Assembly: GCA_043804695.1 (NCBI GenBank)
Contig: JAZDIV010000105.1
Span: 1 to 12,189, forward strand
Direction: 5' to 3'
Length of the DNA: 12,189 nucleotides
From: PVC group bacterium
GTDB lineage: Bacteria; Auribacterota; Erginobacteria; Erginobacterales; Erginobacteraceae
The notes under the pieces were generated by a model. The model did not search any database. It worked only from the letters and a program-made list of their open reading frames with translations, and was not told the DNA's origin. Position 1 is the first letter of the stretch; every line of letters starts with the position of its first letter. The translations under genes were made by a program, and so were the position numbers. Below are positions 981 to 12,189 of this stretch, in pieces.

Positions 981-1052
981 GATCAGGGTCACACCCCAAA
1001 TAATAAGTTTATGATTTAATTATTCTGGAATTTAAATCTTGTGTATTCAACT
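981..1052 (+). repeat. Long intergenic repeat, copy A (truncated before the hairpin); core site 985-1008
   Basis: GATCAGGGTCACACCCCAAATAATAAGTTTATGATTTAATTATTCTGGAATTTAAATCTTGTGTATTCAAC aligns with the copies at 1724, 2878 and 11021. Confidence 0.9.
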
Positions 1053-1136
1053 TTCTGAACTTTTATAGTAACCTGTGAACAATCATATTGTGCACCCTTT
1101 CAATGGAAAGGCATGTTAATAAAAGGAGGAAGAGGT

Positions 1137-1718
1137 ATGAAGAAAGTTATGGTTATAGCGTTGGTGGTAAGTCTGGCCTTGTTCCTGGGCTTTTCCGCCC
1201 AGGCCCAGCCCAGTGTCGGCCTGGAAGCTCACGGGCTTTACGGTTTCGCGTTCAGCGATGATTACGCCAAGCTTGACAACGGCTGGGGCGGGGGGGGCTC
1301 GCTGGTACTCTGTCTGGGCGAACTGGTCAAATTGGATATCGGCGGTGATTATCTCCATACAAAAGCAAAGCTTGACAACAGCAGTGATGTCGATCTGATT
1401 CCGATTACCGCGACCCTCCGGGTCGGCCCCCAGATCGACCCGGTCTATCTCTACGTCGGCGGTGGCGCCGGATACAGTTTCAACGACCTTGGCTTGATTT
1501 TTGCCGGCCTCGAGCCGTACGTACTAAAAGATTGCTTTACTTACCACGGCTGCGCCGGCTGTGAGGTAAGTTTTACTTCGGAGAAACAGATCGGTCTGCG
1601 AGTGGAAGGACGTTACGTATGGATGAAGCCGGAGATTAGAACAAAGGCGACCGGAGCTACGGAAGACTGGAAGATGGATCACTTCCAGGCCAGAGCCGGC
1701 TTGATCTTCTACTTCTAA
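1137..1718 (+). CDS. Outer-membrane beta-barrel protein (small OmpW/OmpA-membrane-domain-like)
   Basis: AGGAGG/GAGG RBS before ATG 1137. Sec signal MKKVMVIALVVSLALFLGFSAQA. Amphipathic strands (LYVGGGAGYSF, LRVEGRYVW) and a C-terminal beta-signal ending in Phe (ARAGLIFYF). Confidence 0.85.
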   Translation: MKKVMVIALVVSLALFLGFSAQAQPSVGLEAHGLYGFAFSDDYAKLDNGWGGGGSLVLCLGELVKLDIGGDYLHTKAKLDNSSDVDLIPITATLRVGPQIDPVYLYVGGGAGYSFNDLGLIFAGLEPYVLKDCFTYHGCAGCEVSFTSEKQIGLRVEGRYVWMKPEIRTKATGATEDWKMDHFQARAGLIFYF

Positions 1719-1723
1719 AAACG

Positions 1724-1888
1724 GATCAGGACAATACCACAATTAATAAATTCACGAGTTAAATACTCTTGAACTTGAATCTTGTGTATCCAACCTCCCG
1801 GAAGGGAGGTTTTTCTTGTGTGCCTGGCTCTTAACCGATAAACTCCTTATTCGGTTATTGTTCTCATTCTCTATTCTCTTTAATCAAT
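1724..1888 (+). repeat. Long intergenic repeat, copy B (full, ~165 bp); core site 1728-1751
   Basis: Colinear with copies C and G: ATCAGG..ACC.CAA.TAATAA...TCTTGTGTATCCAACCTCCCGGAAGGGAGGTTTTTCTTG...CTCTTAACCGATA...CATTCTCTATTC. Confidence 0.9.
1792..1817 (+). terminator. Intrinsic terminator within repeat B
   Basis: Stem AACCTCCC, loop GGAA, stem GGGAGGTT, followed by TTTCTT. Lies downstream of the beta-barrel gene. Confidence 0.8.
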
Positions 1889-1905
1889 AGTCGAGATTTG
1901 ATATC
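1882..1905 (-). repeat. Degenerate 24-bp site copy (minus orientation)
   Basis: Reverse complement GATATCAAATCTCGACTATTGATT matches the 8702-8725 copy (GGAGTCAAACCTCGACTAATGACT) with identical spacing. Confidence 0.6.
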
Positions 1906-1918
1906 GATGACCACGAAG

Positions 1919-2005
1919 TGTCAAAGGGAAAGATTTGACCCCAAATACACAGATTTGACCCCAAATACAAAGGGAAAGATTTGACCCCAAATACACCAAA
2001 TACAC
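1919..2005 (-). repeat. 24-bp site (1919-1942, minus orientation) followed by tandem partial re-duplications
   Basis: TGTCAAAGGGAAAGATTTGACCCC at 1919-1942. AGATTTGACCCCAAATAC occurs at 1931, 1951 and 1977, CAAAGGGAAAGATTTGACCCC recurs at 1968-1988, and CCAAATACAC recurs at 1996-2005. Confidence 0.92.
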
Positions 2006-2007
2006 GC

Positions 2008-2040
2008 AATACAGACATACAACCGGATATTGAACGATGA
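2008..2040 (+). pseudogene. Probable 3' remnant of an AbiEi-type antitoxin gene
   Basis: Reads NTDIQPDIER-stop with TGA 2038-2040 overlapping the toxin ATG 2037 (ATGA coupling). Resembles the '..N.xIEPD' tails I recall for antitoxins paired with this toxin subfamily. Only ten codons remain. Confidence 0.5.
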
Positions 2041-2826
2041 TCCCGGAAGCATACGTCAGGGAATGGTATGGACTGGCCCCCTGGCAAACCTGGCCGAAAG
2101 CAGGACCCGATCCTCAGCCGTATGCTCGTGGAGCTCTTCCACAACAGCTTTATTGCCGGAAATTTGATTTTCCGCGGCGGGACGGCACTGCACAAACTTT
2201 TCTTTCCCCGGGCGCTCAAATATTCAGAAGACATCGACTTCGTACAAAGTGAGCCCGGTCAAATCGGTCCCATATTCGACGAGATTAGAGGCGTGTTCCA
2301 TGAATGGTTGGGGCATCCCCGGCGGAAGGTCGGACCGGGAGTGGCAACGTTGACTTACAGGGCTGCATCCGAAGATAATCCGCCACTCCCTTTGAGAATA
2401 AAAATTGAGATCAATACACGGGAACATTTTCAGGTGTGGCCCGTTGAGAATAAATCATTTCGTATCCAATCGAGGTGGTTCGAAGGGCTCGTCAGGATTC
2501 CGGTGTATTGTACAGATGAATTGCTGGCCACGAAGATGCGTGCTCTCTATCAGCGCAGAAAAGGCCGAGACCTGTTCGACCTGGCGGCGGCATTGCGGGA
2601 GGTTAACCTGTCCCCGGAACGTATCGTTAATGCGTTCAAAAAATATTCCGAGGCGGAAGGGCAGACGATCACCCGGAAAAGCTATCGGGCTAACCTGCTC
2701 GGCAAGCTTGATCATCCCGGATTCCTTTCCGACTGTATTCCTCTTCTGCGTTCCGGCATCGGATTTGATCCAAAAGAGGATTTCGATCTTGTTGACCGGG
2801 AACTGATAACCCGGCTGCCCGGTTAA
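2037..2826 (+). pseudogene. abiEii: AbiEii/AbiGii-family nucleotidyltransferase toxin (type IV TA), frameshifted near codon 21
   Basis: Family N-terminus MIPEAYVREW...APWQ in the frame from 2037. The body QDPILSR..FRGGTALHKL..YSEDIDF..KIEINTREH..LLATKMRALYQRRKGRDLFDL is in the frame of ORF 2068-2826. The frames switch at TGG CCG AAAG CAG GAC (~2091-2106). Confidence 0.88.
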
Positions 2827-2844
2827 TAAAATTCTGCGTGAGTG

Positions 2845-2868
2845 GGAGTCAAATCTTTCCTCTTAACA
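2845..2868 (+). repeat. 24-bp site copy, inverted partner of 1919-1942
   Basis: GGAGTCAAATCTTTCCTCTTAACA versus the reverse complement of 1919-1942, GGGGTCAAATCTTTCCCTTTGACA. Confidence 0.9.
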
Positions 2869-2877
2869 GTTGAAAAG

Positions 2878-3035
2878 AATCAGGGTCACACCCCAAATAC
2901 TAAGTTCATAATTTAATTGTTCTTGAATTTAGATCTTGTATATTCAACCTTCCGGAAGGGAGGTTTTTTCTTGCGTGCCTGACTCTTAACCAATACAATC
3001 TTTATGTTTTCATTCTCTATTCCCTTCAATCAATT
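2878..3035 (+). repeat. Long intergenic repeat, copy C (full); core site 2882-2905
   Basis: AATCAGGGTCACACCCCAAATACTAAGTTCATAATTTAATTGTTCTTGAATTTAGATCTTGTATATTCAACCTTCCGGAAGGGAGG...CTCTTAACCAATACAATCTTTAT...CATTCTCTATTCCC, colinear with A, B and G. Confidence 0.92.
2946..2972 (+). terminator. Intrinsic terminator within repeat C
   Basis: AACCTTCC-GGAA-GGGAGGTT followed by TTTTCTT. The single C>T change retains pairing as G:U on the + strand. Confidence 0.8.
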
Positions 3036-3338
3036 ATGATAAGTGGGGAATAGTGAATAGGGATTAGGGATTGGATTTTAAAAACCCCAGAGGCCACCTT
3101 TAAAACAGGCGGATACCGCAGTATCTTTTATTTTCCGGCGAAGAAGCTTTTGAACAGGTTAGCGCAGAACGCAGAGTGACACGGGTCAGCTAGTGTACTT
3201 CTTCCCCTGCCACATGAAGTGGCACGGGCCGGTGTCTCTTGAGAAATTGCTGTTAACTATGGAACTTTTCAGGTTTTTTCTTTGCTTGTTTATCCATACA
3301 TAATTGTTGGCGCACGGATCAAAAAAGGAGGCCGACTG

Positions 3339-4859
3339 GTGAAGACTAAAGTGCTCAGCCTGGCAGGCGGATTGCTTTTACTGGCAACTGTTAACCCGGT
3401 TAACGCGGAGATAGCCGCGCCGCCGGGAACGTCGGCGACCGAGCTGGACGCCTCCGGGAATGTCAGGAATTACGTCATTGCGGGCCCGGCGGGCAATTTC
3501 ATCCCGGAAGAGGGCATCCGGTCGGCCCGGTGGGATAACTGTACGTCCACCATCCCCACCCTGATCTCCCCCCCCGACGGGTCGGAACTTACCACCATCG
3601 CCCCTCTGTTCGAGTGGAATCCTCATACCGATTCCTGGGCGATCATGATGATGATGGAGGTGGCCCTGGACGCCGAGTTTTCAGATGTGATTGACAGCCT
3701 AACCACCAACTATCCCGTTTACCGCTTCTCAGATAATTTCGACCCGGCCACGACCTACTACTGGCGCACCTGGATGGTCTGCGAGGAGGGAGACGGCCCC
3801 TACTCGGAGGTCTGGTCTTTTATCACCGGTTCCGGGGGAGTCCTTCCCTCCGCCCCGGACCCGGTCGGGCCGCCCGACGGGGCCACGGTTCCGCTGGGAT
3901 CGACTCCGGTCAGAGTGAATTGGTCGGCGGTCTCCGGGGCGGAGGGCTATCAGGCAATGCGGCATGACAGGGGGGGCGGAACCTACCTTTACTCCAGCAC
4001 GGAGCTGTACGTGGATATGTCCTACCTGGATGAGAATACCACTCACGAGTGGTGGGTCAGGGCCCGGAACGATTACGGTTACGGCTCCGATTCGGCATCG
4101 CGGCGGTTTCGGCAAAACCTGGTTCTGGAGAGCGGGGATTATGACGGGGACGGGAGAGACGACATCGCCATCTTCCGCGATCGAACCGGGCTCTGGGCGG
4201 TCCGGGGCGTGACCAGGATTTACTTCGGAAAGCGTTATGATATCCCGGTGCCGGGGGACTACAACGGCGACGGGACGACGGAACCGGCGATCTTCCGGAG
4301 CGATTCCGGCCTCTGGGCGGCAAGAGGAGTGACCCGTGTTTATTACGGCGCCGCCGCCGATCTTCCGATCCCCGCGGATTACGACGGGGACGGTTCGTGC
4401 GAGGTGGGGATATTCCGGGGAGAGAGCGGGTTGTGGGCGCTGCGCGGGCTTACCCGGTTTAACTTCGGGGTTTACGGGGACACCCCATTCCCCCCCGGGT
4501 ATGACGGCAGCCCCGCGCCCGCGGAAACCGTGATCTTCCGTGCTTCCGCCGGCCTCTGGACGGTGAGGGGCATCACCCAGGTCCACTACGGGGCCGGCGG
4601 GGACTGGGCGGCGCCCGGCGACTATTTCGGCCCGGACTCCGCGCCGGCCATTTTCCGGGGCTCAAGCGGGCTCTGGGCGGTGATGGACCGGACCAGGTTG
4701 TATTTCGGCGCCGGCGGGGACGCGCCGGTGCCGGGTGATTATAACGGGGCTGACGGGGACGACATCGCGATCTTCCGCGATCGAAGGGGTCTTTGGGCGG
4801 TCCGGGGGGTGACCCGGGTCTATTTCGGAAGGTGGTACGACCTGCCGGTGACGAGGTAG
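3339..4859 (+). CDS. Secreted protein: two Ig/fibronectin-III-like modules plus a C-terminal six-repeat FG-GAP/VCBS-like domain
   Basis: AGGAGG RBS (3326-3331) before GTG 3339. Signal peptide KTKVLSLAGGLLLLATVNPVNA. FN3-like motifs PTLISPPDG..PLFEW..TTYYWR..GPYSEVWSF and VNWSAVSGAEGY..WWVRARNDYG. Six (G)DYxGDG..IFR..GLWA.RG.TR.YFG repeats from ~4131, ending DLPVTR. Confidence 0.85.
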   Translation: MKTKVLSLAGGLLLLATVNPVNAEIAAPPGTSATELDASGNVRNYVIAGPAGNFIPEEGIRSARWDNCTSTIPTLISPPDGSELTTIAPLFEWNPHTDSWAIMMMMEVALDAEFSDVIDSLTTNYPVYRFSDNFDPATTYYWRTWMVCEEGDGPYSEVWSFITGSGGVLPSAPDPVGPPDGATVPLGSTPVRVNWSAVSGAEGYQAMRHDRGGGTYLYSSTELYVDMSYLDENTTHEWWVRARNDYGYGSDSASRRFRQNLVLESGDYDGDGRDDIAIFRDRTGLWAVRGVTRIYFGKRYDIPVPGDYNGDGTTEPAIFRSDSGLWAARGVTRVYYGAAADLPIPADYDGDGSCEVGIFRGESGLWALRGLTRFNFGVYGDTPFPPGYDGSPAPAETVIFRASAGLWTVRGITQVHYGAGGDWAAPGDYFGPDSAPAIFRGSSGLWAVMDRTRLYFGAGGDAPVPGDYNGADGDDIAIFRDRRGLWAVRGVTRVYFGRWYDLPVTR

Positions 4860-4897
4860 TTGCGGAGAGGTTATTGAAGAGCGGTAAGCTGGGAAAG

Positions 4898-4925
4898 AAT
4901 CAGGGGCACACCCTGAATACTAACT
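4898..4925 (+). repeat. Short copy of the repeat core site (D1)
   Basis: AATCAGGGGCACACCCTGAATACTAACT versus copy C AATCAGGGTCACACCCCAAATACTAAGT. Confidence 0.85.
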
Positions 4926-4966
4926 AAAGAATTCCTTAAACATCCGATCCCAAGTATCGCCGGTCA

Positions 4967-5000
4967 AATCAGGACCATACCCCAATTAATAAGTTTATAA
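4967..5000 (+). repeat. Short copy of the repeat core site (D2)
   Basis: AATCAGGACCATACCCCAATTAATAAGTTTATAA is intermediate between copies A and B. It overlaps GGTCAAATC (4962-4970), a fragment of the other site variant. Confidence 0.8.
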
Positions 5001-5015
5001 AACCTGGTTCAATTA

Positions 5016-5836
5016 TCAGACACGTGCCTCGACAATGTGCCAACGGGATTCGGGGCTGTCAGGGAAACGGCCCGAAAGGTATCTCAGCATAAGATCGTCT
5101 ATTCTTCTTATTGTTACTTCTGAAAAACCTGATGATTTTAGCTGATCGATAAAAGTTTCCTCGTCATCGGTATTATCAAGGTTGAAGAAGAACCCGCGGC
5201 CAATCGATTTCATCAGTAATTCATTCAGTCGTTTGATCCTGGAGGCTTCCCAGTAATCAAAGATCATGAGGCTGTCGGCGGCAAGCTTCAGGTAACCGGG
5301 ATCAATAAGCCGTCTGGTCATTTCCGGTGGCAAGGAGAAAAGAAGTCCTTCTATCAGTACCAATGACTTTTCAGCGGGATTGTATCCGTTCTTGATCAGT
5401 TCACCCAGGAGATCACCGCTCAGGTCACAGGGGATATGTTTAATCCAGGCAGGAATAGTGACAGCATTTCCTGCCAGCACATCTTTTTTGTGTTTGATCT
5501 GTGCCGGGGTATCAACCTCGAAGACAGAACACCCGCCATCGGAAAGTCCCTTTAGATATATCGGGCGGCAGTCAAACCCGGCACCCAGGATTATCGCCTG
5601 AGACACTTGTGATGATATTTCCTCAAGAAGCGTGGAAGTAAACTTAAAGCCGCAGAGATTGTATGGCTCGTAAAAGGGTCGACCTTTCTTGCCATTTCAA
5701 AAAACTTGATACCGGGATCAGTGATAAAATACCCGGCAAAAGGGTCGTCTATCCCCATCTCCCGTGCCAAAGAGCCGGCCCGGATTACCACACAGCCATC
5801 TGCCGAGACCTCGCCCATCCCTGTTTCTTTATCCAT
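5016..5836 (-). pseudogene. Class I SAM-dependent methyltransferase (LCM/TIGR00027-like), split by a frameshift
   Basis: N-part MDKETGMGEVSADG..VIRA...IDDPFAGYF lies in ORF 5591-5977. C-part QAIILGAGFDCR..VFEVDTP..KK..IPCDL..SLVLIEGLLFSL..FDY lies in ORF 5016-5606, whose frame stays open upstream (YEPYNLCGFKFTSTLLEEISSQVSQ). One extra base in the A4 run at 5672-5675 joins the two parts. Confidence 0.82.
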
Positions 5837-5952
5837 TTTATTATCCAAGCTTTTTAAGCATCTCCTGGCAGGCTTCAATGAACCGGTCGTAATCTTGGCG
5901 CTGGTTCCAGAGGCAAGCATCGATACGCAGGGGGATTTCTGTGGGCGCGGGT

Positions 5953-6008
5953 GAATAAGGGTCTTTCCTCTTGACATTAGAATCTATTAGAACAGACCCT
6001 GATCTTTT
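5953..6008. repeat. Two degenerate, oppositely oriented site copies (E1 + 5953-5976; E2 - 5977-6008)
   Basis: TCTTTCCTCTTGACA (5962-5976) is identical to the 3' part of 10969-10992. Minus-strand AAAAGATCAGGGTC (6008-5995) matches the start of copies A and C. Confidence 0.7.
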
Positions 6009-6014
6009 CTGATC

Positions 6015-8404
6015 TTACCTCGTCACCGGAATATCGCCGGAGGTGCCGAAGTAAGCCCTTGATATCCCCCGTATGGCCCACAGCCCCGAAGTCCCCCGGA
6101 AGATACCGATGTCATCCCTTCCATCACCCTGATAGTCGGCGGGAACCGGCTGATCGGAACCCCTCCCGAAGTAACTTCTCGTTACTCCCTTGATGGCCCA
6201 GAGTCCTGCCGTCGGCCGGAAGATGCCGATATCCCAGCTCCCATCGCCATCGTAGTCTCCGGGAACGACTGTATCCGACGATGACCCGAAGTAGGACCTG
6301 GTCACTCCCCTGATCGCCCAGAGCCCTGAAGAACCACGGAAGATACCGATATTCTTCGAGGTATTCCCGGCATAGTACCCCGGGGCCGGGGTGTCAGCCG
6401 AGGAGCCGAAGTAGACACGTGTCACACCCTTAATGGCCCAGAGTCCTGAAGCAGCCCGGAACAGCCCGATATCCCAGCTCCCGTCCCCGTTGTAATCACC
6501 CGGCTGAGGAGAATCGCTGCCGCTCCCGAAATACGAACGGGTGACTTCCCGGACAGCCCAGAGACCGGCGGAACTCCGGAATATCCCGATCTCGGTCGTC
6601 CCGTCACCGTTGTAATCCCCGGGGACTGTCTCATCACTGGAGGAGCCAAAGTAGACGCCGGTCACCCCCCGCACCGCCCATAAACCTGCGGCAGAACGGA
6701 AGATGGCGATGTCAGAGATCCCGTCGCCGTTGTAGTCGTGGATCCAGGGCGGCACAGGCATGGCCCCATATTCATAGGAACCGATATCCACCCGGTCAGC
6801 GCGCCGGTATCCCCTCTGGTCATGGGAATTAACCATCTCCAGGGTCTGGCCGGTTGGATCATATTCGTTCCCATTGTCAATCCGGCGATACAGCGCGGGA
6901 CTTGAAACGGGGACGAGATAGATCAGGATATTATTATCGCTGATTACTCGATAGACCGATGCCCCGGCATTGATCGCCGGACTGTCGGAAGCAATGGAAT
7001 AGCAATCCGTCACCCCTCCGTGATAACCAAAACTTCCCAGCTTGGGATCGGAGTTTATGCAGCCGGGCCCGAAACCGCTGATGTCTCCTGAAACAGTGCT
7101 ATAGCGGATATGTGAATAATCAGTAAAACCTAAAAACTCGCCTCCGGGATTCCCCCAGAAAATGCTGGCCGTGGCATTAATTGGATAATCAGTTGAAACT
7201 TCTGCAATCCCACCACCAGATGGAGCCGAATTTTCACTGAATGTGCAGTTGGTCAGCATGAGCGAGGAGACGGGGACGTCGTTGAGGCATATCCCACCCC
7301 CGTAGGCTGTTGCCGAATTGCCGGAGAACGTGCAGTTGGTCAGGGATTCGCTGCCGGAGCCGTACATCCCTCCCCCGTATTGTGCCGAATTCCCGCTGAA
7401 CGTGCAGTTGGTCAGGATAGGGTCGCCATAGTAGTTGAATATTCCCCCCCCGAACTCGGCCGAATTCCCGCCAAACGTGCAGTCGGTCAGGGTGCCTTCG
7501 CCCATCATCCCCCCCCGAACTCGGCCGAATTCCCGCCGAACGTGCAGCCGGTCAGGGTGCCTTCGCCCAGCATTCCTCCCCCGAACTGGGCCGAATTCCC
7601 GCCGAACGTGCAGTCGGTCAGGGTGCCTTCGCCCATCATCCCCCCCCCGAACTGGGCCGAATTCCCGCTGAACGTACAGTCGGTCAGGGTGCCGGAGCCG
7701 TACATCCCCCCCCCGAACTGGGCCGAATTTCCGCTGAACGTGCAGTTGGTCAGGGCGGGTGAGGAGGAGTCGTCGTTGTAGTAGTTGTACATCCCACCGC
7801 CATTCCCCTGTCCGGGACCTTCCGCATTCCCCCCGGTGACGATGACGCCGTCGAGGAGAGCGCCGGCAACAATTTCAGGAGATTGATCAGAGTTATAGAT
7901 CACGTGGTAAACGTTCGTATAGTTTTCCAGAACGGGGAGGTCCTGACCCGGATCTCCGGTCGGTGGCGGATTGAAGTTTCCGCTCCCGTCGACAATCAGG
8001 GTTCCGTCATGCCAAGTATCGGAGGTTCCCCGGTCCCCTGAAAGGATGGTCTGGTTAGTAATCGGATCCCGTTGTTCCAACGAGGACTCCGTTCCCGCAA
8101 ACCCCCCATACACCTCGACATTATTCCGGAGGGCGAAGCAGTATTCCCGGGGGATACTGGCAGCGGTATGGGGGTTAAACTGCGGCTTATAGACCCCTTT
8201 CTTCACCCAGACCCGGTGAGGGCCTCCGGCGGTAACGTTCGCCAATTCGATGGCAACCTGGGGATCGGTCGCGGCGGTAAACCAGGAATTGAATGGGGGT
8301 GTGCCGGAACCATCTGATGCCACATAGAAGACATCGGCCGAGGCGGCTTGAACGAAGACGATGGAAAACGCAAAGAAGATATGCACCCAAGTTTTCTGCG
8401 TCAC
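6015..8404 (-). CDS. Secreted right-handed beta-helix (Pmp/pectin-lyase-like GGG repeats) protein with a C-terminal six-repeat FG-GAP-like domain; interrupted by a 1-nt deletion in a G-tract
   Basis: AAGGAG RBS before GTG 8404. Signal peptide ..HIFFAFSIVFVQAASA. Motifs VWVKKGVY, VEVYGGFAGTE..RD...TILSGD, repeated CTFSGNSAxxGGG, SPAINAG..DQRG..R..DIGSYE, then six DYxGDG repeats ending DIPVTR. ORFs 7505-8473 and 6015-7508 join if C8 at 7509-7516 were C9. Confidence 0.85.
7444..7753 (-). repeat. Intragenic tandem repeat, 66-bp (22-aa) unit, about five copies
   Basis: The GAA marker falls at 7452, 7517, 7583, 7649 and 7715 (spacings 65, 66, 66, 66). The unit encodes GEGTLTDCTFGGNSAQFGGGMM. More diverged copies lie at about 7290-7415. 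Confidence 0.95.
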
Positions 8405-8581
8405 GGCAAACTCCTTGGAATTATATAATGATACCTTCCTCCTTTTCATGGCAAGGAAATTTTTAGGGAGCATTTTAAACGTGAGAGAAACTTACCGCAG
8501 CTTTTATTAATTAACAGACGAATTGGATGTGATTGGATATTAAGTTTTTTTGCACAAAAGACGTTATACTATTAATGTTCA

Positions 8582-8710
8582 GATGAGTTGGGAAGATCAG
8601 GTAGAGACGGCATAGCGCATACTTATCAGCGAATCAAAAACAAAATGGAGAAGGATAAACAGCTGTTTCGCCGAGTGAATCGGATTTATCAAGAGATTAA
8701 CAGTCATTAG
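8582..8710 (+). mobile_element. Probable C-terminal remnant of a RAYT/Y1 (HUH) transposase carrying a DnaA-domain-IV-like tail
   Basis: The open frame reads ..GRSGRDGIAHTYQRIKNKMEKDKQLFRRVNRIYQEINSH-stop, resembling the last two helices of Bac_DnaA_C. It has no credible start and ends inside a copy of the 24-bp site. Recognition is by eye only. Confidence 0.5.
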
Positions 8711-8725
8711 TCGAGGTTTGACTCC
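8702..8725 (-). repeat. 24-bp site copy (minus orientation) 23 nt downstream of the treS stop
   Basis: Reverse complement GGAGTCAAACCTCGACTAATGACT shares the GTCAA-N10-(T/A)TGAC spacing with 10969-10992 and 16/24 positions with 985-1008. Confidence 0.75.
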
Positions 8726-8748
8726 GGGGCCTCTAAATATCCTTATGG

Positions 8749-10881
8749 TCAGTCGGTTGGGAAAAGGATGGCTTTACCGGAGAGGGCGTCGAGCTTGACG
8801 GTGAAGGCGCCGACGGGGGAGGCGGCACCTTCCGCTTCGCCGGTTATCAAGTTCTGCGCCGTGAGGCCCTGAAGGGCGCCGAGCGTAAATGTCTCCTCGA
8901 CGGACTCCCGGCCGAAGTTTAAAGCGGTCAGCTCGATTCCGAGTCCGTCCGGGAGGCGGTTGACCATCAGGACGGAACCCGGGTTTTTCACCTCCGGCAG
9001 GCCGATCCTCTCCGCGAGGTCCAGCTTGTATTCCTTCCGGATTTTGAGCATCTTCTTCAGACGCGAGGCGAAGGATGAAGGGTCCTTCAATTGTTGAGGG
9101 AGGGGGCCATAGAGCGCCTGGGCTTTCGGCATGCCGGCTGAGGACTTCTTTGCGGCGGGGTTGACGTCCATGAGGTCATAGGCTCCGCGGTTTACCCAGC
9201 GGTAGTCACCGTCGGCGAGGAGGGACGTGATCTCTCCGGTTGGAACAGGGAGCGCCCCCACCAGGTCCCAGCCGGAGAGTGCGAAAACGCCGGGTTGCAT
9301 GGCGTTGTACATCGCCATCAAGAGGTGCCCCTTCTTTAATTTATCCTTTTCCTCGTCAGTTATATTGCGGGGATCCTTCACACCGAGAGCAGCGGCGCAG
9401 AGCCCTGCGCAGGTGGTGCAGAGCCCGTTTCCGGAGAGCTTGTTGTAGGGGTAATCGGGCCCGGTCGCCAGACGGTGCATCTCGTCGATAATCTCCCGGC
9501 GCAGTTCCTCCCCCCTGACTTTCTTCCCTCCGTAATCGAAGAGGTCGTTGCCCTGCTCGGAGAATTGGACGAGCTCGTAGGTGATCTCGTCGTGATTCTG
9601 GAGAGCGTGAATGAGTTTCAGTGGTTTTACGCCGGAGGAGAACATCAGACTGAGGGTCAGGCGCAGGAAGCCGGCGTTGCCGGTGAGAAGGGCGTGGGCG
9701 TAGGCGGGACGGGTGATAAAGTCGTAGGAGAGGTCGGGGCCCAGCTCGGAAAACTCCTTGATGTCTTCGATGGTCAGGTTGAGTTCCTGGAAGGACCAGC
9801 CTCCGAGCTTGCGCATCAGCCAGGCGATGTACTCGCTGCTGGTGACCGAGAGGGGGTGCCCCTCCGACCAGCATTTGGCCGATCCGGGTTTTATCTCGAG
9901 ACCGAGAAAAGGATTGGCGTCGAGGCGGATCACGCGGGCGCCGAGATCGAGGCGGGTTTTGACAATGTCGCCGGCGATGAGACGGTTGGCGGCGAAGCTC
10001 GGGTCGAGCCAGTTCAGCGTGGGCTGGCCGGGCCTGAAATAGTGGAGGTAGACCCAGCGCCGCTCCTTCCCGTCGGTCCCGGTCACGACGGGCGTGGCAT
10101 TCCAGGCGGTCACCGGACCCCCGCCCGGGACAGAATAGAGGACGCGCTGCAGCTGGCCGGGGATATACCCCTTATCTTTCAATCTTTCCACGGTATCCGC
10201 GGGGAGGTTCACGCTGTCCTCGCCTTCGGAAACGTCGGGCAAAAGTCCCCAGTCGTCTTTTTCGATAGTCACCATGGAGTAAAGCCCCGGGTAGTCCTTA
10301 TAGCCCCGTTCGGCGAGGCGGAAGTCGGCGCCCTTGCCGGTATGGCCCGGGATGATATCCCCGATGATGATCGCCCCGTGTTTATGAGCCATTGCGACCA
10401 GCGCTTTATAATGCTCATCGTCTCCGAAAATCGGGTCGACATGGTAGCTGATACGGTCAAACCAGCCATCAACGGTCGGCGTGTAGCCTCGTCCCTGAAT
10501 TCCGCCGGCCCTTCTCACCGGTCCGGTGTGCATCGCCTGGATCCCGATCTCCTCGAAGGCGACCCAGAGATTTTCATTGCCCATAGCCTGAAGGACTGAC
10601 TCACCTTCCCCGGTGATGGTGGAGGAAGGATAGGCGGTGAACCAGACCGAGGCGGTTTCGATAAGTTTCTCCGGTTGGGGCAAAGCGTAAGGGTGGCGCC
10701 ACTGGTTACCCCGCCCGGATACCATTCCGGCTAACTCGCCGGCCTCCCGGAGCATGGCCCGATCTTCCAGCCATTGGATATACGAGTCGGAGCCGCCCGC
10801 GGCCCCTTCAGATGTTGTCGGGCCGAAGAAAATGGTGAAGATCAATAATGCCGCCGGGAGCAGTCCTTTAGGTGTGTTCAT
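8749..10881 (-). CDS. treS: Trehalose synthase / maltose alpha-D-glucosyltransferase, Pseudomonas stutzeri type (GH13), with an N-terminal signal-peptide-like extension
   Basis: AAGGAG-AAGGA RBS. Family motifs YIQWLEDRAML, ASVWFTAYP, HTGP..AGG..TPTVDG.FDRIS, IPGHTGKGADFRLAE, RRWVYLHYF..GQPTLNWLDPSFAA. Catalytic regions RLDAN, FQELN and LQNHDE are intact. Confidence 0.93.
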   Translation of the reverse strand: MNTPKGLLPAALLIFTIFFGPTTSEGAAGGSDSYIQWLEDRAMLREAGELAGMVSGRGNQWRHPYALPQPEKLIETASVWFTAYPSSTITGEGESVLQAMGNENLWVAFEEIGIQAMHTGPVRRAGGIQGRGYTPTVDGWFDRISYHVDPIFGDDEHYKALVAMAHKHGAIIIGDIIPGHTGKGADFRLAERGYKDYPGLYSMVTIEKDDWGLLPDVSEGEDSVNLPADTVERLKDKGYIPGQLQRVLYSVPGGGPVTAWNATPVVTGTDGKERRWVYLHYFRPGQPTLNWLDPSFAANRLIAGDIVKTRLDLGARVIRLDANPFLGLEIKPGSAKCWSEGHPLSVTSSEYIAWLMRKLGGWSFQELNLTIEDIKEFSELGPDLSYDFITRPAYAHALLTGNAGFLRLTLSLMFSSGVKPLKLIHALQNHDEITYELVQFSEQGNDLFDYGGKKVRGEELRREIIDEMHRLATGPDYPYNKLSGNGLCTTCAGLCAAALGVKDPRNITDEEKDKLKKGHLLMAMYNAMQPGVFALSGWDLVGALPVPTGEITSLLADGDYRWVNRGAYDLMDVNPAAKKSSAGMPKAQALYGPLPQQLKDPSSFASRLKKMLKIRKEYKLDLAERIGLPEVKNPGSVLMVNRLPDGLGIELTALNFGRESVEETFTLGALQGLTAQNLITGEAEGAASPVGAFTVKLDALSGKAILFPTD

Positions 10882-10968
10882 TTCCTTACTCCTTTCTTTT
10901 TAACTGTTCCCATTTTAATAAAAAGTTCGGGCTGCAGCCAGAAAAAATCAGGAAGACTCGAGTAAAGA

Positions 10969-10992
10969 GGGGTCAAATCTTTCCTCTTGACA
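10969..10992 (+). repeat. 24-bp site copy, inverted partner of 8702-8725
   Basis: GGGGTCAAATCTTTCCTCTTGACA is 22/24 identical to 2845-2868. Confidence 0.92.
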
Positions 10993-11020
10993 ATTGAGGG
11001 GATTAAAAAATCAGGGGAAA

Positions 11021-11160
11021 AAGCAGGGTCCCTCCCAATTAATAAATTCTTAATTTAATTATTCTGGAATTTAACTCTTGTGTCTCCAACCTCCCGGAAG
11101 GGAGGTTTTTCTTGTAAGCTCAGCTCTTAACCGATACAATCTTTATCTGGTGATTGTTTA
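11021..11160 (+). repeat. Long intergenic repeat, copy G; core site 11025-11047
   Basis: CAGGGTCCCTCCCAATTAATAAATTCTTAATTTAATTATTCTGGAATTTAACTCTTGTGTCTCCAACCTCCCGGAAGGGAGGTTTTTCTTG..CTCTTAACCGATACAATCTTTAT, colinear with A, B and C. Confidence 0.92.
11088..11113 (+). terminator. Terminator-like hairpin within repeat G
   Basis: AACCTCCC-GGAA-GGGAGGTT-TTTCTT, identical to 1792-1817. There is no + strand gene directly upstream here. Confidence 0.7.
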
Positions 11161-11273
11161 TATGCTCTAATCATATTTGCCAATTCCGGCGGCGCCATAC
11201 CGGTCTCGGCGGTTTCCTAGCCGGGCCGGCGTGTCCCGGCCGCCGGGGTCAACCAACGGATAAGAGGTGCACG

Positions 11274-12189
11274 ATGAAGATTGCGGTTATCGGCACAACT
11301 GTTTTGCTCTGCGCGCTGGGGGTCCTGGCGTCCGCCGCCCGGGCGACGGGATGGGAATACCAGAACCCCCGTTCGGAGAACCGGTTTCTGAACCGGGTCC
11401 GGACCGACTCCGCGGGCGGCGCCTTCGCGGTCGGGAACGAGGGGGTGATTCTCCGCTGCGACGGGGAACGCTGGTTGGCGATGCCGAGCGGGGTGGATTA
11501 CGACCTGCTGGACGTCTGCGTTTTTGACCCGGGCGCCGGGTTGGACGCCGTGGCCGTGGGCGGCTCCGGCACGGCTCTGGTCTTCGACGGTTCCGCCTGG
11601 TCCGAACTGGCGACTTCGACCGTCCTGGACCTGAACGGCGTCTGGGGGCCGGCCGCCGATGACCTCTTTGCCGTGGGGGAGGACGGGGTCATCCTGCGCT
11701 ACGACGGGGCGTCGTGGGGTTTGATGACCACCGTCGGCGTCCCGAACCTCTGGGCGGTATGGGGCGCTTCGACGACCGATGTCTTCGCGGCGGGGGACTG
11801 GGGGCTCATTCTCCATTATGACGGGACGGATTGGACGGTGATGACGGCCGCCCCCCACTGGCTCGACGGGATCTGGGGCAGTTCCGGCCAGGATGTCTTC
11901 GTGGTGGGAGCTTCCGGCCTGATCCTGCACTACGACGGGAGCGAATGGTCGTCGATGGACTCCGGGGCCTCCCTGGATTTCACCGACGTCTGGGGAGTCT
12001 CGGGGACGGATGTTTACGCGGTCACCAATTTCGGCAACGTGCAGGGCAAGATATACCGTTACGACGGGAGTTCCTGGGCCGAAGTCTACTCGGCCGACGC
12101 CGCCTTTAACGGGATCGGGGGATTCCCCGGAGGGGCCGTCTTCGTGGTGGGGGCCTGGGGCGTCATCCTCCGGGGGGAGGGGGGAAGCT
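11274..12189 (+). CDS. Secreted beta-propeller repeat protein (BNR/Ycf48-like), 3' end beyond the window; absent from the ORF track
   Basis: AGAGGT RBS then ATG 11274. My translation: MKIAVIGTTVLLCALGVLASAARATGWEYQNP..AFAVGNEGVILRCDGERW..LNGVWGPAADDLFAVGEDGVILRYDGASW..LWAVWGASTTDVFAAGDWGLILHYDGTDW..LDGIWGSSGQDVFVVGASGLILHYDGSEW.., with no stop before the window end. Confidence 0.9.
   Translation, partial: MKIAVIGTTVLLCALGVLASAARATGWEYQNPRSENRFLNRVRTDSAGGAFAVGNEGVILRCDGERWLAMPSGVDYDLLDVCVFDPGAGLDAVAVGGSGTALVFDGSAWSELATSTVLDLNGVWGPAADDLFAVGEDGVILRYDGASWGLMTTVGVPNLWAVWGASTTDVFAAGDWGLILHYDGTDWTVMTAAPHWLDGIWGSSGQDVFVVGASGLILHYDGSEWSSMDSGASLDFTDVWGVSGTDVYAVTNFGNVQGKIYRYDGSSWAEVYSADAAFNGIGGFPGGAVFVVGAWGVILRGEGGS

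Follow-up and report, generated by a model that had tools for sequence, protein, structure and literature searches.

Contig C105 (JAZDIV010000105.1) of a PVC group bacterium in the family Erginobacteraceae carries a series of genes punctuated by short recurring sites, and it is the nature of these sites that is addressed here. The window comprises the entire contig of 12,189 nt; its own genome (G000) is represented by an assembly of 2.97 Mb in 155 contigs with 57.8% GC and 88% completeness, and the genomes of its relatives are numbered G001 and so on. The window encodes a LigD_N phosphoesterase (192-971), an OMP beta-barrel protein (1113-1718), an AbiEii-family protein (2068-2826; N-terminus in another frame), a secreted fn3/FG-GAP protein (3282-4859), an LCM-family methyltransferase (5016-5977, minus strand; two frames, split near 5591-5606), a beta-helix/FG-GAP protein (6015-8473, minus strand; split at a C run), a protein of the alpha-amylase family (8749-10881, minus strand), and a secreted repeat protein (starting at 11274). 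The genes occupy both strands, encode products of up to 710 amino acids, and vary in GC3 from 0.51 to 0.77. Their annotation confirms the statement of a first-pass annotation of the same DNA that they are functionally unrelated.

The sites fall into three related repeat types, TIR-A (GGGGTCAAATCTTTCCTCTTGACA), TIR-B (CAGGGTCACACCCCAAATAATAAGTT), and TIR-C (GGAGTCAAACCTCGACTAATGACTG), named for the terminal inverted repeats (TIRs) discussed below. In the window, TIR-A is present at 1919(-), 2845(+), and 10969(+), and in partial form at 5953(+); TIR-B is present at 985(+), 1728(+), 2882(+), 4902(+), 4971(+), and 11025(+), with a weak member at 5977(-); and TIR-C is present at 1882(-) and 8702(-). 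A recognizable core exists at each of the 13 positions reported by the first-pass annotation, of which 11 are solid, whereas 5953 is a TIR-A without AAATC and 5977(-) is weak. The six distances between stop codons and co-oriented sites (13, 9, 18, 42, 14, and 23 nt) were reproduced exactly. The single consensus into which the annotation had merged all sites did not hold up: as written, it has no exact match in the window, and with up to three mismatches it has eight matches compared with 4.96 expected, a number reached by 26 of 200 shuffled sequences. As a description of one family, it does not discriminate against shuffles and was rejected. A 12-nt core pattern yields 17 matches in the window compared with 7.1 expected, and none of the 200 shuffles reaches this number.

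Across G000, the 24-nt TIR-A occurs 17 times on 11 contigs with up to four mismatches (11 copies are exact), and the reversed pattern used as a control is absent from all 41 genomes searched. The 26-nt TIR-B pattern has 19 matches in G000 compared with none for its reversed control. The recognition of TIR-C as a type rests on its context, as its four matches are close to the two of the control; it has 14-19 aligned positions in common with the 26-nt TIR-B (TIR-A has 13) and is a diverged TIR-B-like end.

Several of the sites in the window stand alone. A TIR-A on the minus strand (1919-1942), accompanied by two partial outer copies (1919-1996 in total), lies just upstream of the AbiEii gene, and a solo TIR-A with two mismatches (2845-2868, plus strand) follows 18 nt past the AbiEii stop codon, 12 nt before the next TIR-B. 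TIR-A sits 12-32 nt before TIR-B in three copies in G000 and in two in G004. Past the stop codon of the fn3/FG-GAP gene are two solo TIR-B-like heads on the plus strand (4901-4926, four mismatches; 4970-4995, two mismatches). The weakest of the listed sites form a degenerate inverted pair 14 nt past the stop codon of the beta-helix/FG-GAP gene (5953-6000), in which the TIR-A lacking AAATC (5953-5976, plus strand) abuts the weak TIR-B-like site (5977-6000, minus strand). A solo TIR-C (8701-8725, minus strand) with 19 identities to TIR-B is located 23 nt past the stop codon of the alpha-amylase-family gene, and an exact TIR-A (10969-10992, plus strand) forms, together with the inner four nucleotides, a 28-nt match to the right-end type of the transposon. 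The AbiEii and amylase genes, for example, are flanked by outward-facing ends and are therefore situated outside the elements, not inside them. The window itself contains no transposase gene but only solo ends and copies of a longer repeat, B, which is described below.

In relatives of G000, TIR-A and TIR-B flank genes of the PF01797 family, which supports the guess of the first-pass annotation that a Y1/HUH enzyme is involved. The intact elements measure approximately 1.07-1.09 kb and consist of an open reading frame (ORF) for a Y1/HUH protein of 335-341 amino acids between inverted TIRs. In G009:C93 and G023:C79, pairs of TIR-A spaced 1.07 kb apart enclose ORFs of 338 and 337 amino acids, respectively, with 49-52 bits on PF01797 (cut-off 23). 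Their best match among the NCBIfam models is the REP-associated tyrosine transposase (RAYT) NF047646 (72-74 bits; cut-off 80), and they score 17.4 bits on the IS200 model NF033573 (cut-off 55). The C-terminus of the transposase matches Bac_DnaA_C with 23.1 bits (E 7.9e-5), which is below the cut-off of 31.5, and HTH_23 with 15 bits. In the TIR-A element, the stop codon of the ORF lies within the right repeat; TIR-A ends in TTGACA, which in the left repeat precedes TATCTT by 16 nt, with the start codon downstream of both. A TIR-B pair in G009:C77 encloses an ORF of 341 amino acids (44 bits on PF01797) with 37% identity to the TIR-A enzyme, and another in G004:C53 encloses an ORF of 335 amino acids with 61% identity to that of G009:C77. 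A third full-length paralogue, with 34-36% identity to the other two, is encoded by G000 itself (C43, 48450-49412) and has its own inverted repeat of 22 nt or more (GGTGTCGCGTCTTGACATTGGACA), again ending in CTTGACA. A crude pattern revealed no obvious TIR-like words near the other six PF01797 matches in G000; the TIR of the C43 paralogue was found later.

Elements of this architecture have been described as TIRtrons, in which RAYT-like Y1 genes (TIRYTs) are located between long inverted repeats, many of which contain the motif GGGGWSAS (Di Nocera et al. 2013, PMC3733652). TIR-A (GGGGTCAA) and TIR-B (AGGGTCAC) each agree with this motif at seven of eight positions. Twenty of 26 TIRYTs were assigned to TnpA subclass 2.1, with C-termini resembling Bac_DnaA_C or HTH_23 (Quentin et al. 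2018, PMC6006769). The TIR-A and TIR-B elements belong to the published TIRtron/TIRYT kind, and no fewer than three families of TIRs (those of TIR-A, TIR-B, and C43) are present in the lineage, each paired with a separate transposase paralogue.

Evidence for TIR-A transposons within G000 comes from its broken contigs. On C19, C67, C78, C81, C100, and C121, TIR-A is located 177-756 nt from a contig end and always reads toward that end, as is characteristic of elements whose multiple copies cause assemblies to break. C81 starts with the last 249 amino acids of the transposase (54% identity to the G009 protein), and N-terminal pieces of the transposase are present at the ends of C67, C78, and C121. 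On C106 (5816-6286), an inverted pair of TIR-A surrounds a gene remnant in an internally deleted copy of 471 bp.

A repeat of approximately 175 nt (B), which had escaped the first-pass annotation, is present in four copies in the window, with the sites at 985, 1728, 2882, and 11025 at their heads. B is composed of TIR-B, an AT-rich hairpin, an intrinsic terminator (AACCTCCCGGAAGGGAGGTT followed by a T run), and a promoter-like tail of about 75 nt. A profile search (nhmmer) recovered seven strong matches in G000 (E 1e-26 or better), four on C105 and three in the first 10 kb of C151; among the relatives, long copies of B were found only in G004, which has at least six. The four copies in the window are all on the plus strand. 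The first (976-1100; E 1e-26), which begins 13 nt past the stop codon of the LigD_N gene and lies upstream of the OMP gene, is truncated: it retains the AT-rich hairpin and its TIR-B head (984-1009) but lacks the terminator. The second (1719-1905; E 2.7e-51) is complete, with TIR-B (1727-1752), the hairpin, the terminator (1792-1811) and its T run, a tail with TTGTGT (1816-1821) and TAAACT (1839-1844) separated by a 17-nt spacer, and an inverted TIR-C (1881-1905, minus strand). The third (2873-3036; E 1.9e-47) has TIR-B (2881-2906), the terminator (2946-2965), and the promoter-like tail, but TIR-C was not found at its right end. The fourth (11015-11185; E 1e-48) is located upstream of the gene starting at 11274 and has TIR-B (approximately 11024-11048), the terminator (11088-11107), and a tail with TTGTAA, a 17-nt spacer, and TACAAT (11112-11140).

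The terminator hairpin is retained in all nine aligned copies of B, as are TTG, the spacer length of 17 nt, and TAnAnT in the tail, while the letters of the spacer vary; one copy scored as promoter-like. Judged by these features, the tail is probably a promoter of the sigma-70 type. In all seven copies in G000, B has the same orientation as the downstream gene. The units closed by an inverted TIR-C (ending at 1905 in the window and at 2700 and 4283 on C151) begin just past a stop codon and extend to within about 45-60 nt of the start codon that follows; those with both ends measure approximately 182 nt (1724-1905 in the window) and 257 and 317 nt (C151). B is non-coding and multi-copy and has inverted, albeit imperfect, ends, as is typical of miniature inverted-repeat transposable elements (MITEs; 70-300 bp), and it looks like a MITE-like element that fills whole intergenic spaces. 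Its nucleotide identity (72-86%) contrasts with the amino acid identity of an adjacent ADI-like protein (40-55%).

Many TIRs are bordered on the outside by one to four repeats of a unit made up of a flanking word of 5-11 nt and the initial 2-22 nt of the TIR. Such stutters are found in the window outside the TIR-A at 1919-1996 (minus strand), where two partial copies with the flank word GTATTT have their cores at 1951-1962 and 1977-1988. Elsewhere in G000, they occur on C19 (approximately 39700-39790), C78 (269-360), C81 (733-800), C100 (20390-20475), C106 (6263-6330), C121 (238-290), and C145 (2740-2870), and among the relatives in G001, G003, G004, G006, and G031. When stutters were scored as recurrence of the 10-mer at the junction of flank and TIR within 90 nt outside the TIR, 12 of 110 occurrences, which include some chance matches, were positive, compared with a mean of 0.02 for shuffled flanks and two for an offset control word. 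Stutters may be scars of repeated cycles in which an HUH enzyme nicks, extends, and rejoins the DNA a few bases outside the repeat; nothing on them was found in the available text of PMC3733652 and PMC6006769. Short tandem words of the GGGATT type directly past the third copy of B (3040-3075) are similar to the stutters outside TIR-A (e.g., on C121); no TIR is present there, and the words may be a footprint.

TIR ends are also found next to housekeeping genes. On C106, they lie 14 nt past the gene for arginyl-tRNA synthetase (ArgS) and 57 nt past a convergent DUF3604 gene, on C90 they lie 23 nt past a class II aldolase gene, and on C78 approximately 71 nt past the gene for a pyridoxal phosphate (PLP) enzyme; others precede genes for an aminotransferase (on C19) and a ParB protein (on C24). 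The first-pass annotation had named an equal spread of sites behind housekeeping genes as a mark of ordinary dispersed repeats; ends do lie behind such genes (those for ArgS, the aldolase, and the PLP enzyme), which agrees in kind with this refuting observation, although the spread is not equal.

The genome of G004 is the closest comparator (84% nucleotide identity of gatB). The amylase block (8746-10941) has 93% nucleotide identity to G004:C50, where both flanks differ; on one side, the homology extends as far as the stop codon, leaving about 20 nt to the TIR-C at 8702(-), and on the other it ends 27 nt before the TIR-A at 10969. The amylase gene of G004 is divergently oriented to an adjacent gene for a protein of 832 amino acids, whose orthologue in G000 is located on C147. 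A segment of C151 (9340-9878) has 93% identity to G004:C90, and the homology stops 7 nt before a TIR-A. The region preceding an orthologous aminotransferase gene contains a copy of B in G004 but a TIR-A transposon in G000. No site is present at the border at 5602 of C151 or at an indel of 2.84 kb (6497-9339) on the same contig, which lies inside genes. The expectation of the first-pass annotation that breakpoints coincide with sites holds in part: several breaks in homology to G004 are located 0-27 nt from a site, but others are site-free. The repeats mark some but not all rearrangement junctions, as is usual for dispersed repeats. When gene order around the homologues of window genes was compared in G001, G003, and G004, only single genes matched, which is weak evidence either way, as these relatives are distant for most genes.

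Taken together, the sites are probably terminal inverted repeats of TIRtrons and their non-autonomous miniature derivatives, situated in a rearrangement-prone stretch of the genome with low GC and poor synteny. TIRYT enzymes would spread the ends in trans by acting on single-stranded hairpin DNA, and the insertions would persist mainly just past stop codons, either because they are tolerated there or because these positions are targeted. B would end the transcript arriving from upstream and initiate a new one for the gene that follows. The presence of so many dispersed copies would render the low-GC stretch prone to rearrangement, which would explain why the window looks like a succession of unrelated single-gene blocks.

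Several observations weigh against this interpretation. Sixteen of the 40 scored sites are concentrated in 23.2 kb (C105 and positions 1-11000 of C151, 0.78% of the genome), where about 0.3 would be expected from an even distribution; such extreme clustering is not predicted by a model of REPs scattered everywhere. The inverted repeat formed by TIR-B and TIR-C is imperfect (14-19 aligned identities over the 26-nt TIR-B), and covariation in the hairpins of B is weak (compensatory changes in 2 of 30 pairs). Neither an orthologous empty site nor an empty-filled pair was found for B in G001, G003, and G004, and no target-site duplication is evident in the flanks of the B alignment. A search of the G000 assembly (88% complete) for a transposase of TIR-B or TIR-C was negative (best tblastn identity 36-38%), so that B is at most a putatively mobile element in G000, and its promoter and terminator functions are predicted from sequence. 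The several homology breaks within 0-27 nt of a site and a TIR-A pair that encloses a gene other than a transposase would be compatible with a more active role in the movement of genes.

In such a role, TIRYTs would move TIR-bounded genes and the window would be an active gene-mobilizing platform: cargo would replace the transposase, or one-ended events would carry neighbouring genes along, and B would serve as a portable joint of terminator and promoter, which together would amount to a Y1/HUH-driven, attC-independent shuffling of single genes. The stutters would mark the point of cleavage a few bases outside the repeat. The single clean example is an inward-facing TIR-A pair on C151 (9885(+) and 10761(-), the latter with four mismatches; locus L010), whose members are 877 bp apart and enclose, in the usual place of the transposase, a copy of B and a SnoaL-like gene that was found in one of 40 relatives and in none of eight family members. 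A TIR-A pair in G004:C84 (1389(+) and 1663(-)) contains B alone, and in the window, the TIR-B head at 4970(+) and the weak TIR-B-like site at 6000(-) bracket the LCM methyltransferase gene (found in 4 of the 40 relatives) over approximately 1.03 kb, the size of a TIRtron. The SnoaL-like pair and the weaker methyltransferase pair keep the cargo reading alive, albeit at low odds, and the conserved amylase block ending near TIR sites on both sides and the different occupants upstream of the aminotransferase gene in G004 and G000 point in the same direction. Yet most genes of the window lie between outward-facing ends, the border at 5602 and the 2.84-kb indel on C151 lack a site, the same ends stand behind housekeeping genes, no unit of gene plus TIR was seen in two contexts, and ordinary recombination between repeats accounts for the breakpoints equally well, which makes such a platform unlikely. 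Less likely still is that the sites are operator, promoter, or terminator modules of a host regulon that are maintained by selection and are not mobile. The TTGACA at the end of TIR-A, 16 nt before TATCTT and the start codon of the transposon, the terminator and promoter-like tail of B, its consistent orientation toward the downstream gene, and its conservation above the more divergent ADI-like protein would fit a regulatory function, but these very sequences form the ends of transposons that break the assembly, the flanking genes have no function in common, and stutters at outer edges are typical of DNA processing rather than of regulation.

The first-pass annotation had interpreted the window as an integron-like platform for gene capture. 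Such a platform is not supported, in view of the ends behind housekeeping genes, the site-free breaks, and the outward orientation of the ends. It is scarcely credible that the window is a classical integron array or an integrase-less attC cluster, with attC sites that the annotation had failed to recognize. Integrons do exist in the lineage: integrases above the cut-off of TIGR02249 (265 bits) are encoded by G001 (two), G027 (two), and G009 (one). The best match in G000 is a frame of 306 amino acids on C32 (270-1190) that aligns in two pieces (99.6 and 88.6 bits), with positions 111-247 of the model missing; this intI-like frame is internally deleted and decayed. Profiles built from the six attC sites of an integron of the same genus (G001:C7) have seven matches in G000 (E 8e-15 or better), which are classical sites of approximately 130 nt on C53 (2848-2982), C99 (5837-5963), C106 (three sites, 62694-64848), C30 (16104-16221), and C93 (10517-10632). 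The TIGR02249 search found no integrase on C105 or C151, and the attC profiles have no match in the window or in positions 1-16000 of C151 at E values up to 1. The fold of B consists of three local hairpins instead of one long R''/R' stem. Instead of co-oriented, mostly promoterless cassettes, the window has genes for up to 710 amino acids on both strands, and the amylase gene brings along 60 nt of conserved upstream sequence. The possibility that B is a decayed attC was rejected because the likeness of its tail to the 3' ends of attC is too slight. A real cassette array in G027:C60 (locus L059, 40-4150) is AT-rich (33% GC) and consists of small co-oriented ORFs with attC-like sites (CCTAAC...GTTAGGC); three to four of these sites contain TIR-A plus 22 nt in a constant position just before the AACTCTAACGTTAG end, which suggests that TIRtron ends are located inside integron attC sites.

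The remaining features of the window concern its genes and intergenic regions. The GC content of C105 (55.2%) and of positions 1-11000 of C151 (51.3%) compares with a contig mean of 58.1% (SD 2.2). The C run (7500-7515) divides the beta-helix/FG-GAP gene into two ORFs, and the N-terminus of the AbiEii protein is in a different frame (2037-2100), either of which could be due to assembly error, phase variation, or decay. A module of approximately 720 nt with six FG-GAP-like repeats of 120 nt each forms the C-terminus of two window proteins (4134-4859 and 6015-6750); in several relatives, the number of its matches well exceeds 100 per genome (135 in G001). A hairpin repeat of the type CCTGCCACAT[AG]AAGTGGCA[CG]GGG, which bears no relation to the TIR families, is located upstream of genes in the window (3204-3228) and on C147 of G000 (approximately 9930-10060). 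An intergenic stretch of about 31 nt (8507-8540) recurs on C152, C132, C45, and C31, and the region 8581-8722, which includes TIR-C, has 82% identity to G003:C366. At E values up to 1, the sole Rfam match in the window was a weak fluoride riboswitch within a gene, and in a check for overlapping contig ends, C105, the left end of C151, and C32 joined to nothing.

If the sites are TIRtron ends and their derivatives, as we consider probable, the lineage offers paralogous TIRtron families side by side, a miniature element that seemingly provides both a terminator and a promoter, and stutters at the edges that may record the position of the enzyme's cut. The combination renders both the enzymology of TIRYTs and their effect on gene order amenable to testing. 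In a full-text literature search, TIRYTs and TIRtrons were named only in PMC3733652 and PMC6006769, and the available text of neither reports experiments on them. For annotation, the window serves as a reminder that a run of unrelated genes punctuated by sites is not necessarily an integron, even where the lineage does possess integrons.

The window resembles integron attC arrays in that unrelated genes are parted by a recurring structured site just past the stop codon, and integrons are present in the lineage; it differs in that IntI is absent, the sites lack the R''/R' architecture of attC, and the attC sites of G000 are located elsewhere and are unrelated in sequence. With IS200/IS605, the elements have in common the PF01797 superfamily and, probably, single-stranded hairpin substrates. 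IS200/IS605 elements are not known to have terminal inverted repeats, whereas such repeats are present here, and the score of the transposases on the IS200 model is below its cut-off.

NEMIS/Correia, RUP, and ERIC are MITEs that affect neighbouring genes. Like these elements, B is a non-coding sequence of 180-320 nt that has imperfect inverted ends, borders on genes, and harbours a terminator and a promoter-like box in addition to hairpins. Unlike theirs, its ends stem from a Y1 (single-strand) transposon and not from a DDE insertion sequence. Target duplications were not observed, and the copies in G000 are confined to two contigs. All three are listed as bacterial MITEs in PMC3733652.

REPs (repetitive extragenic palindromes), RAYTs, and REPINs (Nunvar 2010, PMC2817692; Bertels & Rainey 2011, PMC3116915; Bertels 2017, PMC5581495) likewise combine a Y1 gene between inverted short repeats with dispersed intergenic copies of the repeat, mostly after genes, and REPs are mostly found downstream of coding regions also according to PMC3733652. 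Further similarities are the inverted doublets and the RAYT model as best match among the NCBIfam models. As far as these systems are described in the available text, the elements of the present lineage differ from them by the lack of a GTAG tag, the approximately 40 scored sites compared with hundreds, and an enzyme that is twice as long, is not single-copy, and scores below the cut-off of the RAYT model.

The closest counterparts are the TIRtrons, although the motif GGGGWSAS is matched at seven of eight positions by TIR-A and TIR-B, and the transposase gene is multi-copy here, breaking at least six contig ends. A stop codon of the ORF within the right TIR, a -35 box within the left TIR, a derivative with terminator and promoter such as B, and stutters are not mentioned for TIRYTs in the available text of the two publications. 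In both cases, a Y1/HUH transposase of about 340 amino acids, whose C-terminus may be DnaA_C/HTH-like here also, is flanked by long inverted repeats that start with GGGG(T)(C)A (24-28 nt here, beginning with GGGGTCA or GGGTCA), and moderately abundant TIR families occur as singles, dimers, and clusters (PMC3733652), with paralogues that each have a TIR of their own.

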